This document shows positions 1 through 49,302 of a DNA stretch of 64,000 nt, piece by piece. Each line of letters begins with the position of its first letter. Within the stretch, counting starts at the first letter, position 1. The stretch comes from SAR86 cluster bacterium AG-313-D11 (GTDB lineage Bacteria; Pseudomonadota; Gammaproteobacteria; Magnimaribacterales; D2472), in NCBI GenBank assembly GCA_003284215.1, contig QBVW01000006.1, positions 38,520 to 102,519 on the forward strand, in the 5' to 3' direction. The translations under genes were made by a program, and so were the position numbers. Under the pieces are notes generated by a model. The model was not told where the DNA came from. It made no database searches and was given only the letters and a program-made list of their open reading frames with translations.

Positions 1-815
1 ATCGCTCCATCATGCAACGGCACATCTACCCTAGATCCCTCTTCATAAGAAGTTTTAATTTCTTGCCCAATTGGAACAAAATCAAGACTGGAGACAGATT
101 CATTATGCTCTCTGATATGGTCATAGCTTTTAGTCGAGCCAGCATGATTATTAAATGTTACACATGGTGAAATTATATCTATTAATGAAAATCCTTTAAA
201 TTTCATTGCTGCTTTTAATAGAGGGATTAATTGATCTTTATCTCCTGAGAAACTTCTTCCTACAAACCCTGCCCCTAGTTGAATTGCCATGGTAGGCAGA
301 TCAATTGGAGCTAATAAATTTTCTTCGCCATATTTGCTCTTTGAGCCTTGATCATTGGTTGCAGAAAACTGACCTTTAGTAAGGCCATAGGTTCCATTAT
401 TTTCAACGATGTAAGTTATATTAAGCTGTCTTCTTGCTGCATGCATGAACTGTCCTATGCCTATTCCTGCTGTATCACCATCCCCTGATACACCTAAATA
501 AAGTAAATCTTGATTTCCAAGATTGGCTCCAGTTGCAACTGAGGGCATCCTGCCATGAACAGAATTAAAGCCATGAGCTTGGTTGAGGAAATAAGATGGC
601 GATTTTGATGAGCATCCAATTCCTGATAGCTTTGCAATTTGATCAGATGAAAGACTTAAATCGTAACAAGCCTCTATTACAGCAGCACTAATAGAATCAT
701 GGCCACATCCAGCACATAAAGTTGAGATAGTTCCTTCATAATCTCTTCTTGTCAATCCAAGCTTATTTTTTTCAAGATTTGGATGATGATTGACTGGCTT
801 CACAATGTAGGTCAT
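1..815 (-). CDS. korB: 2-oxoacid:ferredoxin oxidoreductase, beta (TPP-binding) subunit; C-terminus cut by the window edge
   Basis: My translation from the ATG at complement(813-815) gives MTYIVKPVNHHPNLEKNKLGLTRRDYEGTISTLCAGCGHDSISAAV..., followed by the GVSGDGDTAGIG TPP motif. The start overlaps the korA stop (ATGA at 812-815). The ORF is absent from the track because it is open at the window edge. Confidence 0.8.
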   Translation of the reverse strand, partial: MTYIVKPVNHHPNLEKNKLGLTRRDYEGTISTLCAGCGHDSISAAVIEACYDLSLSSDQIAKLSGIGCSSKSPSYFLNQAHGFNSVHGRMPSVATGANLGNQDLLYLGVSGDGDTAGIGIGQFMHAARRQLNITYIVENNGTYGLTKGQFSATNDQGSKSKYGEENLLAPIDLPTMAIQLGAGFVGRSFSGDKDQLIPLLKAAMKFKGFSLIDIISPCVTFNNHAGSTKSYDHIREHNESVSSLDFVPIGQEIKTSYEEGSRVDVPLHDGA

Positions 816-33598: not shown

Positions 33599-33674
33599 GC
33601 GGGAATAGCTCAGTTGGTAGAGCGCAACCTTGCCAAGGTTGAGGTCGCCAGTTCGAACCTGGTTTCCCGCTCCA
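33599..33674 (+). tRNA. tRNA-Gly (anticodon GCC), CCA encoded
   Basis: I folded the cloverleaf by hand. The acceptor stem is GCGGGAA/TTCCCGC, the D-arm GCTC-AGTTGGTA-GAGC, the anticodon arm CAACC-TTGCCAA-GGTTG, and the T-arm GCCAG-TTCGAAC-CTGGT. It closely resembles E. coli tRNA-Gly(GCC). Confidence 0.95.
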
Positions 33675-45212: not shown

Positions 45213-45499
45213 TGAAAGCTTATTGGATCACAAGATGTCATGTTCATAATTCAGATGAGTACGATGAATACATCAAGTTAGCTGGACCAGCGATTAATAA
45301 TTATGGAGGCACTTTCCTTGTGCGGGGCGGTAAGCAGATTGAGTTAGAGGGCGGACCATACGAAAGAACTGTATTGGTTGAGTTTAACTCAATGAATGAG
45401 GCAAAGCTTTGTTATGAATCTAGCGAATATCAAGACGCCTTAAAGTATTCCTCAAATTCTTCTTACCGACACGTCGTTTTAGTGGAGGGAATTAATTAA
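45212..45499 (+). CDS. DUF1330-family small protein
   Basis: The 95 aa begin MKAYWI...YGG.FLVRGG, which is typical of DUF1330. TAATG junctions overlap both neighbours. Confidence 0.65.
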   Translation: MKAYWITRCHVHNSDEYDEYIKLAGPAINNYGGTFLVRGGKQIELEGGPYERTVLVEFNSMNEAKLCYESSEYQDALKYSSNSSYRHVVLVEGIN

Positions 45500-47538
45500 T
45501 GAGAGATGTCTTTATTTTAAGAACTTTATTAAGTTTTGCCATAATTTTTACACTCAATCTATCTTCAAAAGAGCAATCTGATGCAGATAGTTTTTTTGGA
45601 AGAGAAGCACCTGTTTATCCTGCCCCAGATCATCTAATTGGCTGGATAGACTCAAGACAAATTTTTACATTGAATGGAGAATGGAGTTACATAGTTGATC
45701 CTATGAATAATGGCTTGCCTGAGTCGTCATTCTTTGGAGGATTTCCTAAAAATAAAATTCAAAAAACTGGGATGGAGTTGATTGAGTATAATTTCGAAAC
45801 TGCTTCAAAAATTAATATTCCAGGAGCTTGGAATGCTGAGGATGAAAAACTATTTTTTTACAGAGGTCCAGTCTGGCTCTTCAAAAAATTTAATTATGTG
45901 CCAAAAAAACAGTTATTAACTCATCTCTACATTGAAGGAAGCAACTTTACTACAAAGATATTTATAAATGGATTAATTGTTGGAGAGTTTGAAGGTGGCT
46001 ATGTCCCATTTAATTTTGAAATCTCCAAATATTTAAAAGATGGAGAAAATATTTTGTTGGTACAAACCGACAATACTCTTAATCAGTCCTCTGTGCCAAC
46101 GCAAAAAACTGATTGGTGGCCTTGGGGAGGGATTGTTGGTGATGTATATATTGTCGAGACTCCAAAGAACTTTATTCAAAATGCATATCTGCAGCTAAAT
46201 CCTAAAAATTTATCTAACGCTTTTTTTAATCTAGAGATGAGCAAGGAGTTATCAGGACAAAGGATAGTGCTAGAAATTCCTGAGCTTCAGTTTAAAAAAG
46301 AATTTCTTACCAATGCTGATGGATTTGTCAGAGAAAATATAGAAATTTCGCCACAGCTTTGGTCACCAACTGACCCAAAACTATATGACATAATCATTTC
46401 TTCTAATCAAGAAAGTATCTCTGATGAGATAGGATTTCGTTCCATCAAAGTAGATGGGCCAAATATATATCTAAATAATATTGAGATTAAGTTTAAGGGA
46501 ATTGCTATGCATTCTGAGCCTATTGGAATACCAGGCCCGGCTTTTTCAAAAGATCATTTTGAAAACCTTCTTTTAACGGCCAAAGACCTTAATATTAATT
46601 TTGTCAGAGCGGCGCATTATCCATATACTCGCCATTTAGCTAGGGCTGCAGATAAACTGGGCCTAATGCTGTGGGAAGAAGTTCCTGTTTATTGGAATAT
46701 TGATTGGGATAATTCTGAGACATTAAATATTGCAACCAACCAAATTAAAAGATTGGTGCAAAGAGATCAAAATAGGGCATCTGTGGTGGTTTGGTCTGTG
46801 GCAAATGAAACCCCATTATCTTCTTCAAGAATGAGATTTTTGAATACACTTCTGTCTGAGATAGAGGCTATTGACTCAACGCGATTAACTACAGCAGCTC
46901 TTTTGTCTGGAAGTGAAGAACAGTTTAAAGCATTGGTTTTAGTTTTAGCATTACAGGGAATTAAATCTTCATGGGTGAGCCCAAAAGAAAAAATTATCTT
47001 TCAATCCATCTTAGCTCAAGCAAATATACCAATTGATAGCAACTTAAATTTTTCCATTTCAATTGACGATCCACTTGGCAAAAGCGTAGATCTAATTTCA
47101 TACAATGAATACTTCGGTTGGTATTACGTAACTTTTTTTACAGAACAAATGATGATTTCTGAAGGCACGCTCAGGAAATTGATGTTTGAGGTTATGCCTA
47201 ACATAAAAATCAGCTCTGTTTTTAATAAGCCCATTCATATATCTGAATTTGGTGCTGGGGCAAAATATGGAAATCATTCAAATAAAATTTGGTCCGAAGA
47301 GTATCAAGCACAACTCTACAAACATCAATTAGAAATGTTGTCTAAGAATCCCCAAATTAAAGGAATTAGTCCATGGGTCTTTAAAGACTTTAGGGCCATG
47401 TTAAGACCATTACCAGGAATTCAAGATTTTTATAATAGAAAAGGTTTGATAGATGAGTCTGGAAATAAAAAATTAGCTTTTGAAGTCTTAGCAGATTTTT
47501 ATGAAAATAAATGGAATATTGAATCTCCATCAAATTAA
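45499..47538 (+). CDS. glycoside hydrolase family 2 (beta-glucuronidase/beta-galactosidase-like), with an N-terminal hydrophobic signal or anchor
   Basis: It has a GH2 sugar-binding domain, an acid/base motif (VVVWSVANE) and a nucleophile motif (ISEFG). Confidence 0.75.
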   Translation: MRDVFILRTLLSFAIIFTLNLSSKEQSDADSFFGREAPVYPAPDHLIGWIDSRQIFTLNGEWSYIVDPMNNGLPESSFFGGFPKNKIQKTGMELIEYNFETASKINIPGAWNAEDEKLFFYRGPVWLFKKFNYVPKKQLLTHLYIEGSNFTTKIFINGLIVGEFEGGYVPFNFEISKYLKDGENILLVQTDNTLNQSSVPTQKTDWWPWGGIVGDVYIVETPKNFIQNAYLQLNPKNLSNAFFNLEMSKELSGQRIVLEIPELQFKKEFLTNADGFVRENIEISPQLWSPTDPKLYDIIISSNQESISDEIGFRSIKVDGPNIYLNNIEIKFKGIAMHSEPIGIPGPAFSKDHFENLLLTAKDLNINFVRAAHYPYTRHLARAADKLGLMLWEEVPVYWNIDWDNSETLNIATNQIKRLVQRDQNRASVVVWSVANETPLSSSRMRFLNTLLSEIEAIDSTRLTTAALLSGSEEQFKALVLVLALQGIKSSWVSPKEKIIFQSILAQANIPIDSNLNFSISIDDPLGKSVDLISYNEYFGWYYVTFFTEQMMISEGTLRKLMFEVMPNIKISSVFNKPIHISEFGAGAKYGNHSNKIWSEEYQAQLYKHQLEMLSKNPQIKGISPWVFKDFRAMLRPLPGIQDFYNRKGLIDESGNKKLAFEVLADFYENKWNIESPSN

Positions 47539-47561
47539 TTATATTTTTTTAATAAAAAGTG

Positions 47562-47589
47562 TTGACTCTATTTACTAAAGGCGTATATT
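47562..47589 (+). promoter_or_regulatory. near-consensus sigma70 promoter
   Basis: TTGACT (47562-67), a 16-nt spacer and TATATT (47584-89). Confidence 0.6.
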
Positions 47590-47595
47590 TAATAG

Positions 47596-47814
47596 ACCAA
47601 CTCGGACCGACTTACAAACAACTGCAGACGGGAGTAAGAGAGAAAGAGAAGGAAGAGACGAAGGGCGAAAGCGATACTAAGAGTCGACGATAAAAAAGAG
47701 CTTAGTAACCCACCAAGGAGGAAAGAGAAAGCCTCCAAGGAGCTAAAGAGATTCTCACTTTAGACCCCTTCCAATCTCGAACTGAAAAGACAGAGCTTAG
47801 CTCTGTTTTTTTTT
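47596..47814 (+). ncRNA. candidate novel purine-rich small RNA, or a long regulatory leader of pyk
   Basis: It is bounded by the promoter above and the terminator below. There is no ATG, GTG or TTG in the body. It is visibly more G-rich than the flanks. It contains the hairpin CC-AA-GGAGG-(10 nt)-CCUCC-AA-GG and a duplicated AGAGCUUAG 9-mer. Confidence 0.5.
47790..47814 (+). terminator. rho-independent terminator
   Basis: ACAGAGC-TTA-GCTCTGT followed by a run of nine T. Confidence 0.8.
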
Positions 47815-47889
47815 GTTTGTAATAAAGTTAAGCCCTGAATCTTCTCACAAGAACTTCACTTTGACCTTTAACAGAGTATCATCTCGATC

Positions 47890-49302
47890 ATGAAGATCAC
47901 AAAAACAAAAATTATTGCAACTATTGGCCCAAGTACCAATAAATACAAATCATTGCAAGACCTTCATGCAGCAGGTATGAATGTAGCAAGAATTAATATG
48001 TCACATGCATCACAAGCTGATGCAGCAACGGTCATAAAGTTAATAAATAAACTTAATAAAAATCAAGCTGAATTATATGGTCCAGTTGGAACTTTGTTAG
48101 ATACTCAAGGACCAGAGATCAGAACAGGCATTAACCAATCTGATATTGACTTAAAAACGGGCGATATTGTGAATCTTACAATTAGAGATGATATTGATGT
48201 TGAGACTTCATCGATCAAGATTAATTACAAGGGCCTTATAAAGAGTGTAGCCAAAGGATCTAAAATAAGTATTGATAATGGGCTGCTCAACTTTAAGGTA
48301 TTAGCTAAAGATAATGAAAATCTTAAATGCAAGGTTATAGATGGAGGAACTCTAGGAAGTAAACGTCATGTAAACCTGCCAGGCGTTAGGGTTGATTTAC
48401 CGTCAATTACAAAAAAAGACAGAAAAGATATAAATTTTGGCATTGAACATAATGTTACTTTCATTGCTTTATCCTTTGTAAGGTCTGCTCAAGATGTATT
48501 GAATTTAAGATCCATATTAAAAAGAAAAAAGTCATCAATAAAAATCATTGCAAAAATTGAAAATCAAGAAGGCTTAGATAATATACATGAAATTACAAAA
48601 GCTGCAGACATAGTAATGGTTGCGAGAGGTGATTTGGGCATAGAAACTGATCTTGCCGATTTACCTAACATACAAAGAAGAATTATGTACGCAACTGCAA
48701 AATGGGGCAGAAGATCTATTGTTGCTACTCATTTGCTGGAGTCCATGATACATAATCCGACACCTACAAGAGCTGAAGTTACCGATGTTGCAAATGCAAT
48801 ATATGAAGGAGCTGATGCAGTAATGCTTTCTGGTGAAACAAGCATAGGTAAATATCCTATTCAGTGCATCAAAATGCTCAAGAAAATTGCATCTAAAACT
48901 GAACATTTCCGAACCCTTGGTTACGAAAAATTTCTTCAAGATAATTCTGATTGGCAAAATATTGCAAAAGGAGCTCGTGATCTTGCGGAAAGAATTAATG
49001 CAGACGGAATCATTGTTATTACTAGGTCGGGGCAAACAGCAAACGTTGTTTCAAATACAAAGCCGTTTCGTATGCCTGTTTATGCTTTCACAAATAGTAG
49101 GAATACTTTTCTTCATTTAAGTTTGATAGGAGGTATGAAGCCATATTATATAAAATCAATTACCAATCAATCACTCACAATTGAAAAGATGAAAACAATT
49201 TTATTAGCTAGTCAGAAATCTAAAAAGTCTCTTAAATTTGTTTTAATAGCAGGTATTTACTCTGCTTCACATACTGACTCAATTCAAATAATAGCAACCT
49301 AA
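47890..49302 (+). CDS. pyk: pyruvate kinase
   Basis: The N-terminus is KTKIIATIGPS. NMSHA and MVARGDLG motifs are present, and the length is 470 aa. Confidence 0.92.
   Translation: MKITKTKIIATIGPSTNKYKSLQDLHAAGMNVARINMSHASQADAATVIKLINKLNKNQAELYGPVGTLLDTQGPEIRTGINQSDIDLKTGDIVNLTIRDDIDVETSSIKINYKGLIKSVAKGSKISIDNGLLNFKVLAKDNENLKCKVIDGGTLGSKRHVNLPGVRVDLPSITKKDRKDINFGIEHNVTFIALSFVRSAQDVLNLRSILKRKKSSIKIIAKIENQEGLDNIHEITKAADIVMVARGDLGIETDLADLPNIQRRIMYATAKWGRRSIVATHLLESMIHNPTPTRAEVTDVANAIYEGADAVMLSGETSIGKYPIQCIKMLKKIASKTEHFRTLGYEKFLQDNSDWQNIAKGARDLAERINADGIIVITRSGQTANVVSNTKPFRMPVYAFTNSRNTFLHLSLIGGMKPYYIKSITNQSLTIEKMKTILLASQKSKKSLKFVLIAGIYSASHTDSIQIIAT

Follow-up and report, generated by a model that had tools for sequence, protein, structure and literature searches.

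The window analyzed here, a 64-kb stretch of contig QBVW01000006.1 from SAR86 cluster bacterium AG-313-D11, carries at positions 47562–47814 of the plus strand what is almost certainly a complete gene for IMES-1, a stand-alone small RNA (sRNA) that probably acts in trans. The unit fills the 351-bp gap between a GH2 gene (45499–47538) and the pyruvate kinase gene pyk (47890–49302), and a preliminary description based on the letters of the sequence had taken it for a novel, orphan RNA without a known family, possibly a conditional-terminator leader of pyk. A gathering-threshold Rfam scan over the full 64-kb window returned two hits, namely a tRNA gene at 33599–33671 (plus strand, 69.5 bits) and the IMES-1 RNA motif RF02034 at 47601–47790 (plus strand), the latter with 198.1 bits and an E-value of 5.7e-45 at a gathering score of 81 bits. 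Since this full-length match lies far above the gathering score, the unit is a rediscovery of a catalogued small RNA, neither a new RNA nor a pyruvate-kinase leader; a hit to a known family was the very outcome that the preliminary description had named beforehand as speaking against novelty. The alignment covers positions 1–191 of the 191-position model with no truncation and a single one-nucleotide deletion, the consensus architecture (a P1 domain and a closed junction with three hairpins) is complete, and the loops and junctions are near-identical to the consensus. The same model gives 192–201 bits on SAR86A, SAR86E and other loci, and the core sequence of the window is identical to copies from SAR86 single-cell genomes.

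The elements of the gene in the window are the following:

47540–47559, plus strand: A/T tracts upstream of the -35 box (TATATTTTTTTAATAAAAAG), resembling an UP element and putatively functioning as one
47562–47589, plus strand: sigma-70-type promoter found by motif scan, with -35 TTGACT (47562–67), a 16-nt spacer and -10 TATATT (47584–89), matching the consensus at 10 of 12 positions
47596, plus strand: predicted transcription start (an A), 7 nt past the -10 box by promoter geometry, within 1–2 nt either way
47601–47790, plus strand: full-length IMES-1 core (RF02034), beginning 5 nt downstream of the predicted start
47784–47814, plus strand: intrinsic terminator found by motif scan, with stem ACAGAGC (47790–96)/GCUCUGU (47800–06) and loop UUA

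The terminator stem is lengthened by A–U pairs from 47784 and leads into a T-run at 47806–47814, and the predicted transcript would span ~219 nt, from 47596 to ~47814. The Rfam model ends at 47790 and covers neither the promoter nor the terminator hairpin, parts of the gene that are conserved and invariant, respectively. Otherwise the window copy has the same five helices as RF02034 and nothing structurally different, its clade being set apart by the one-nucleotide deletion, located before the junction-closing stem, and by a version of helix P4 (GGAGG/CCUCC) that resembles a Shine-Dalgarno (SD) sequence.

The RNA was reportedly described, under a name meaning 'identified in marine environmental sequences', by Weinberg, Perreault, Meyer and Breaker in Nature 462:656 in 2009, where it is said to rank among the most abundant RNAs within the bacteria that encode it, whose identity was not known at the time. 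Shi, Tyson and DeLong, in Nature 459:266 in 2009, are said to have detected it independently as an abundant putative sRNA group in ocean metatranscriptomes. On the SAR86A scaffold JH611156 (locus L009) we found IMES-1, at 199.7 bits, between IDO/DUF1330 and pyk/pyruvate dehydrogenase (PDH) E1. In their account of the glycolysis and glucose-uptake region of SAR86, Dupont et al. 2012 (ISME J 6:1186, Fig. 5, Suppl. Fig. S5; PMC3358033) reported a noncoding RNA abundant in metatranscriptomes and inferred 'rapidly responsive RNA-based regulation' of carbon assimilation; that account describes a single locus and does not use the name IMES-1. Their noncoding RNA is very likely IMES-1, as judged from the fit of the JH611156 locus to their description of the region, which is not a base-for-base comparison. 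A full-text literature search found no paper pairing the name IMES-1 with SAR86, and no functional study, the account of Dupont et al. being the sole one to connect the RNA to SAR86. Besides a locus of the kind they described, the present analysis shows another recurrent one, in which oxaloacetate decarboxylase is convergent, as well as tandem doublets.

Scanning one genome per GTDB species with a pattern of 21 specified bases from the conserved core yielded 57 genomic stretches, nearly all titled SAR86 cluster, whose hosts include SAR86A, SAR86E, the single-cell genomes SCGC AAA076-P13 and AAA168-P09, and a closed 1.30-Mb metagenome-assembled genome (MAG). These 57 stretches hold 63 further IMES-1 copies by nhmmer, and a scan of metagenome contigs gave at least 120 loci with at least 130 copies, at least 81 of them full-length; the whole unit is kept in more than 190 other loci. 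The marine environmental origin conveyed by the name was borne out, with copies in SAR86 single-cell and metagenome-assembled genomes, in contigs some of which are named as marine metagenome assemblies, and in IMG/VR environmental contigs. The window itself, with a GC content of 36% and a gene neighborhood that fits SAR86 (TonB-dependent receptor, malate synthase G, DUF1330, GH2, pyk, MarC, a LacI-family regulator and an SSF symporter), is ~82% identical in nucleotides to its best matches, the SAR86E-like group of L042, L037, L031 and L039. Its species would accordingly be placed, by nucleotide identity, on a SAR86E-like branch of the SAR86 cluster, outside the species representatives scanned.

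Promoter, body and terminator move together as a single module, and the flanks differ by lineage. A common layout of A/T tracts, promoter, body, CAGAG-loop-CUCUG and U8–9 was observed in 55 of the 55 genomic copies with full flanks, in all of which the A/T tracts keep a fixed position with a T-run between A-runs and the promoter follows the consensus gTGTTGAC(A/T)-N16-TA(T/A)A(T/A)T. The terminator (CAGAG/CUCUG plus U8–9) was invariant in 54 of 54 distinct genomic copies. Among the metagenome matches listed, 68 of the 73 full-length copies that could be tested have the promoter; L068 lacks it, as do four contigs that are short or high in GC and look chimeric. The terminator was found in 71 of 74, the remainder again being chimera-like contigs. 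The locus L068 (Ga0210310_1003169) carries a full-length IMES-1 at ~140–330 on the minus strand, which, with its downstream flank, matches the AAA076-P13 locus at 99% identity. Ahead of RNA position 2, by contrast, the two sequences are unrelated and L068 has no promoter, which may reflect a rearrangement or a chimeric join at the 5' end of the RNA. The discrete, independently promoted and terminated noncoding unit of ~220 nt that the preliminary description had proposed is borne out by this conservation of the module across copies.

The copy number of IMES-1 per genome is one or two, with two in many SAR86 genomes, and the copies are sometimes in tandem. Tandem doublets ~300 nt apart, in which each member has its own promoter and terminator, were found in at least four genomes and at least six metagenome contigs (tandem or duplicate copies in the genomes L011, L019, L048 and L052 and in the metagenome loci L062, L077, L092, L138, L161 and L168). 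Other genomes or contig pairs with two IMES-1 genes are L031, L037, L004/L028, L013/L024 and L038/L046. The members of tandem pairs are consistently of two different sequence types. Pairs that are distant or on opposite strands, including that of the closed 1.3-Mb MAG OX044367, are identical in sequence. This suggests that the module of promoter, RNA and terminator was recently duplicated or gene-converted as a whole.

As an observation on host range, the contig L002 (single-amplified genome AG-343-G22, titled Pseudohongiella sp.) carries at 470–661 a full-length IMES-1 of 192 bits with promoter and terminator. Along with L107, L109 and L118 it forms a coherent lineage, with flanks mutually 75–94% identical, a GC content of 42–47% (versus 31–36% at other loci) and IMES-1 lying upstream of an IMPDH/GMP-reductase-like gene. 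Because this lineage of 42–47% GC carries a full IMES-1, the host range may extend beyond low-GC SAR86, to a higher-GC SAR86 relative or to a different family.

The genes downstream of IMES-1 vary in family and in orientation, and no consistent position in the 5' untranslated region of a same-strand gene was found. The four most frequent arrangements are given below, with metagenome counts taken among the matches listed:

pyk, same strand: 19 genome copies, 8 metagenome copies
oxaloacetate decarboxylase beta, convergent: 11 genome copies, 18 metagenome copies
PDH E1, same strand: 6 genome copies, 1 metagenome copy
SSF symporter, same strand: 5 genome copies, 2 metagenome copies

The remaining downstream genes include 2-keto-3-deoxy-6-phosphogluconate (KDPG) aldolase (convergent), glucokinase, patatin and others. 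Over both sets, 43 of 101 classified copies face a convergent downstream gene, namely 21 of 58 in genomes and, among the matches listed, 22 of 43 in metagenomes. Two neighborhoods deserve separate mention. In L049, from a SAR86 single-cell genome, IMES-1 lies at 781–973, and a tRNA gene (620–692, minus strand) is found ~90 nt downstream of its terminator, on the same strand and in a context unrelated to pyk. In some SAR86E-like genomes, the gene directly downstream of IMES-1 encodes an unusual enzyme-regulator fusion, in which a glucokinase domain is joined to an N-terminal LacI-type helix-turn-helix (Pfam Glucokinase and LacI), exemplified by the 368-aa open reading frame (ORF) after the copy at 4165 of L031 and present, as cluster c12, in L018, L021 and L033.

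The preliminary description had seen no promoter between the terminator and pyk and had concluded that pyk may depend on readthrough. This was mistaken, as the motif scan placed a promoter-like site in that spacer:

47855–47892, plus strand: pyk promoter-like site outside IMES-1, with TTCACT (47855–60), 16 nt, TATCAT (47877–82) and the pyk ATG at 47890

Of 23 distinct spacers between IMES-1 and pyk, 18 have the same layout of -35, 16 nt and -10, which stops 6–10 nt ahead of the ATG (L006, L009, L011, L017, L020, L023, L025, L031, L037, L039, L042, L052 and metagenome loci), and in several clades the 40 nt that separate pyk from the IMES-1 terminator are taken up entirely by this promoter-like site. 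By this conserved spacing, pyk is probably transcribed from its own predicted promoter, and, because the -10 box ends 6–10 nt before the ATG, the pyk mRNA would be leaderless or nearly leaderless across SAR86 clades. An SD-like 4–5-mer lies within 20 nt upstream in only 14 of 42 window ORFs of at least 150 aa, a count that used longest-ORF starts, some of which are maybe miscalled; the missing SD of pyk is uninformative since only these 14 genes have such motifs, and a weak reliance on SD initiation may be characteristic of this SAR86 genome. Taken together, the convergent neighbors, the varying flanks, the self-contained tandem copies and pyk's own promoter-like site establish IMES-1 as a stand-alone sRNA gene and not a conditional-terminator leader.

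To examine the fold, we mapped the RF02034 structure on an alignment of 54 distinct genomic units. Standard pairs occupied 89.3% of the pair cells, versus 26–46% when the partners were slid by 1–3 columns, and 21 pairs exhibited changes on both sides. The covariation score was 0.317 versus 0.130 in shuffles, none of 500 shuffles scoring as high. This check on homologous copies supports the Rfam fold through compensatory changes, which are strong in P1a, P3, P4 and P5, partial in the junction-closing stem and absent from the terminator stem. The single-sequence minimum-free-energy fold (-54.5 kcal/mol, z = -2.37) recovered most helices, and RNAalifold, applied to the raw MAFFT alignment, found the terminator, all of P3 and P4 and part of P5. 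Alternative RNAalifold pairings, including a long-range helix into the U-tract, involved only invariant positions and were judged uninformative. The elements of the fold in the window copy are as follows:

47601–47648, plus strand: P1 domain from the RF02034 structure line, with P1a (47601–04/47645–48), P1b (47611–15/47634–38) and a conserved loop CAACUGCAGACGG (47619–31)
47659–47772, plus strand: junction-closing stem from the RF02034 structure line, CGAAGG (47659–64) with CCUUCC (47767–72), enclosing P3, P4 and P5
47673–47709, plus strand: P3 hairpin supported by covariation, 47673–81 with 47701–09, and a 19-nt loop with conserved AGUCGA and GAUAAAAAA
47717–47736, plus strand: P4 hairpin supported by covariation, GGAGG (47717–21) with CCUCC (47732–36), and a nearly invariant loop AAAGAGAAAG
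47737–47742, plus strand: single-stranded junction AAGGAG between P4 and P5, kept in 52 of 54 distinct copies
47743–47763, plus strand: P5 hairpin supported by covariation, CUAAAG (47743–48) with CUUUAG (47758–63), and a loop with invariant UCUCA

In P1a, all four pairs have changes on both sides (CG/UA, UA/GC/AU), and at the P1b pair 19/45, 38 copies have AU and 13 have UA. The junction-closing stem has three invariant inner pairs and two that covary, with 77% of its cells paired. P3 is paired in 96.9% of cells, five of its nine pairs being changed on both sides, and RNAalifold predicts most of it independently; P5 is paired in 98.1%, with two of six pairs changed on both sides. The hairpin GGAGG/CCUCC, which the preliminary description had singled out as pairing an SD with an anti-SD, is real and corresponds to P4, where 100% of cells are paired and four of five pairs have changed on both sides. 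Its SD/anti-SD appearance, however, is an accident of the window clade, since other clades carry GAGUU/AACUC, GGAUU/AAUCC or GAAUA/UAUUC in its place. The closing helix proposed earlier between CGACUUA and UAAGAGUCG did not survive, its UUA belonging to the covarying P1b and its UAAG to the 5' arm of the covarying P3. A further candidate, a pseudoknot between CCGA (47607–10) and UCG(A/G) of the P3 loop, was set aside: three of its four pairs are almost invariant, leaving too little variation to decide, only 8 of 54 copies can form the fourth as a standard pair (five CG, three UA), and GUGCA in two copies breaks the pairing. What may be left of the closing helix is a CGA:UCG contact between invariant bases.

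The most pronounced feature of the alignment is the conservation of the unpaired positions. Unpaired core columns show 87.6% identity with 63 of 122 invariant, versus 76.9% and 20 of 70 for paired columns, and the long invariant unpaired runs include CAACUGCAGACGG, GAAAGC, AGUCGA, GAUAAAAAA, CCACCAA, AAGAGAAAG, AAGGAG and UCUCA.

The sequence features by which the unit had first attracted attention are far beyond chance, and most were found as described. The promoter TTGACT-16-TATATT is in place, and the terminator hairpin is followed by nine U if the stem-closing T is counted within the run. The 219 nt from 47596 to 47814 contain no ATG, GTG or TTG, and none of 5000 mononucleotide shuffles lacked all three; this absence is clade-specific, GTG and ATG occurring in other clades. 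Purines make up 66% of 47601–47790, versus a window mean of 51% (sd 4.7%), with 6 of 6381 sliding windows as high, and the U-poor stretch corresponds to 44 nt at 47630 with one T and three C. The 8-mer CCAAGGAG does recur at 47713 and 47735, and the 9-mer AGAGCTTAG at 47697 and 47792, both repeats being specific to the window clade, and the count of six GGA motifs was confirmed. A small protein was considered and rejected: ORFs of 44 aa (plus strand, starting inside the promoter) and 49 aa (minus strand) overlap the unit, and the compensatory stem changes together with 1–3-nt indels indicate an RNA gene.

On these grounds, a working model can be outlined. IMES-1 would be transcribed on its own from the sigma-70-type promoter and terminate efficiently at the intrinsic terminator, its body folding into the P1 hairpin domain and the three-hairpin junction (P3, P4, P5) closed by a stem. 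It would act in trans, with no control of pyk through readthrough, and pyk would start at its own promoter abutting the ATG. The folded RNA would then bind or sequester a protein partner stoichiometrically, which we tentatively regard as the most likely mode of action; it is favored over seed pairing because the loops and junctions outconserve the stems and because the RNA is reportedly extremely abundant. The recurrent neighbors are pyk, PDH E1/E2, oxaloacetate decarboxylase alpha/beta, KDPG aldolase, glucokinase, the SSF symporter and malate synthase. Given that nearly every one of them acts at the phosphoenolpyruvate (PEP)/pyruvate/oxaloacetate node or in sugar uptake, central carbon flux is the probable regulatory target, in keeping with the proposal of Dupont et al.

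A base-pairing sRNA, in which an invariant single-stranded segment serves as a seed for pairing with pyruvate-node or sugar-uptake mRNAs and tunes carbon flux, is the alternative ranked second, which we hold to be rather unlikely; it corresponds to the 'rapidly responsive RNA-based regulation' of Dupont et al. In its favor are the stand-alone nature of the sRNA gene, its Rho-independent terminator and U-tail, the recurrent adjacency to pyk, aceE, oadBA, eda, glk and SSF genes, and the several invariant unpaired runs of 6–13 nt; moreover, the purine-rich segment at ~47640–47660 reads as consecutive A-R-N triplets, the type of motif bound by Hfq. The conservation, however, extends across the whole 190 nt (63 invariant unpaired positions) with no single short seed, and an intricate multi-helix fold combined with the reported rRNA-like abundance is unusual for seed-type sRNAs. 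Being purine-rich, the conserved single strands would also not pair with purine-rich ribosome-binding sites.

A CsrA/RsmA-titrating sponge in the manner of CsrB or RsmX/Y/Z, which the preliminary description had itself rated as not compelling, fares much worse and appears very unlikely. The window copy has its six GGA motifs, two conserved sites are exposed (ACGG(G/A)A in the P1b loop, and CAAGGAGC in the junction in 52 of 54 copies), and the abundance and carbon-metabolism context would suit a Csr-type circuit. Known Csr/Rsm sponges carry 5–22 GGA motifs, mostly in hairpin loops, yet only two to three are conserved over the 54 copies of IMES-1, and the two in P4 belong to its stem and are lost through covariation in other clades. 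No Csr/Rsm Rfam family was detected at E<=1 in 47400–48000, and tblastn with E. coli CsrA gave no match in 1.18 Mb of SAR86-derived DNA, which comprises IMES-1 surroundings only. IMES-1 thus resembles CsrB and RsmX/Y/Z in being an abundant, stand-alone, terminator-ended sRNA with exposed GGA and a tie to carbon metabolism, but those RNAs are strings of GGA hairpins, whereas IMES-1 is a defined multi-helix junction with two to three conserved GGA. A comparable likeness exists to 6S RNA (SsrS), a very abundant, highly structured, trans-acting RNA of ~200 nt that binds RNA polymerase. 6S RNA, however, is one long interrupted helix with a central bubble, and IMES-1 consists of a hairpin domain and a three-way junction; the 6S model found no match at E<=1 in 47400–48000, and the covariation-supported fold is a junction of hairpins.

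The least probable alternative, a cis-acting leader or riboswitch-like conditional terminator controlling pyk or another downstream gene by readthrough, can draw on the aptamer-like appearance of a multi-stem junction with highly conserved junction nucleotides and on the same-strand pyk, PDH E1, SSF or glucokinase gene found 40–140 nt past the terminator in about half of the copies, but it conflicts with the convergent genes described above, with tandem doublets whose first copy precedes only another IMES-1 promoter, with pyk's own -35/-10 and with a terminator stem and U-tract that are invariant and face no conserved competing helix. The antiterminator envisaged earlier, in which the first copy of AGAGCTTAG competes for the 3' arm of the terminator, is contradicted by a shared string of only 3–8 nt across clades. 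The AGAGCUUAG repeat itself is down to 3–6 nt in most clades, nothing in the invariant CUCUG arm compensates for the change of column 109 between G, T and C, and the covarying P3 locks the segment in place. Riboswitch and attenuator leaders share with IMES-1 a structured, conserved RNA ending in a hairpin and U-tract, at times upstream of a metabolic gene; IMES-1 differs from them by its lack of a conserved antiterminator, its variable downstream genes, its own strong promoter and its tandem copies.

Weinberg and colleagues in 2009 reportedly found metatranscriptome levels similar to or above those of 5S rRNA. Indirect information on abundance came from fused contigs. In L059 (IMGVR_UViG_3300016740_000053), an IMES-1 piece at 1–141 is fused to a picorna-like RNA-virus genome encoding a polyprotein with helicase and RNA-dependent RNA polymerase (RdRP) and a capsid with Rhv and dicistrovirus-VP4 domains. 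Other pieces are joined to RNase-P-like sequence (L072) or to sequence resembling large-subunit (LSU) rRNA (L137), and incomplete IMES-1 next to unrelated sequence also occurs in L058, L060 and ~15 other short metagenome contigs among the matches listed. Viral carriage was considered for the three IMG/VR contigs, whose IMES-1 pieces are cut off at three different internal positions and belong to three different variants. Because variants and internal breakpoints differ between contigs, the fusions are best taken for chimeras of RNA-derived libraries, arisen in assembly or as cDNA, rather than for viral capture. Chimeras of this kind are what an abundant RNA would be expected to give in RNA-derived assemblies, and hence an indirect sign of high IMES-1 RNA abundance. 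Their breakpoints were also considered as a map of natural RNA ends and proved uninformative, being internal and varied (several fragments span ~12–142). Such chimeras could contaminate viral contig catalogues.

Several points weigh against the model of a self-contained, trans-acting regulator of carbon flux. For this genome, the start and end of the transcript are predicted from promoter and terminator positions. Some readthrough may contribute, because about half of the copies precede a same-strand metabolic gene at 40–140 nt. Carbon metabolism is implicated through guilt by association, and the neighbor pattern may stem in part from one rearranged ancestral gene island. Finally, Hfq, CsrA and ProQ were not found in ~1.2 Mb of SAR86-derived DNA around IMES-1 loci, a small and biased sample.

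IMES-1 belongs to an uncultured but globally abundant bacterium, and three results narrow the experiments: the self-contained module, the one or two copies per genome, sometimes in tandem, and the near-constant adjacency to genes of the pyruvate node. They add detail to the account of Dupont et al. and leave the overall picture unchanged. In a bolder reading, which we consider quite unlikely, IMES-1 would be a dedicated stoichiometric regulator of the PEP/pyruvate/oxaloacetate node that binds a protein or the ribosome's anti-SD end, with the exposed purine motifs (AAGGAG at 47737–42, the AAGAGAAAG loop and the CAACUGCAGACGG loop) titrating one or the other. With ribosome-like RNA levels, few SD sequences and a leaderless pyk, such titration would shift which mRNAs get translated. 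If true, this would make IMES-1 a new class of global RNA regulator in a highly abundant heterotroph of the surface ocean.

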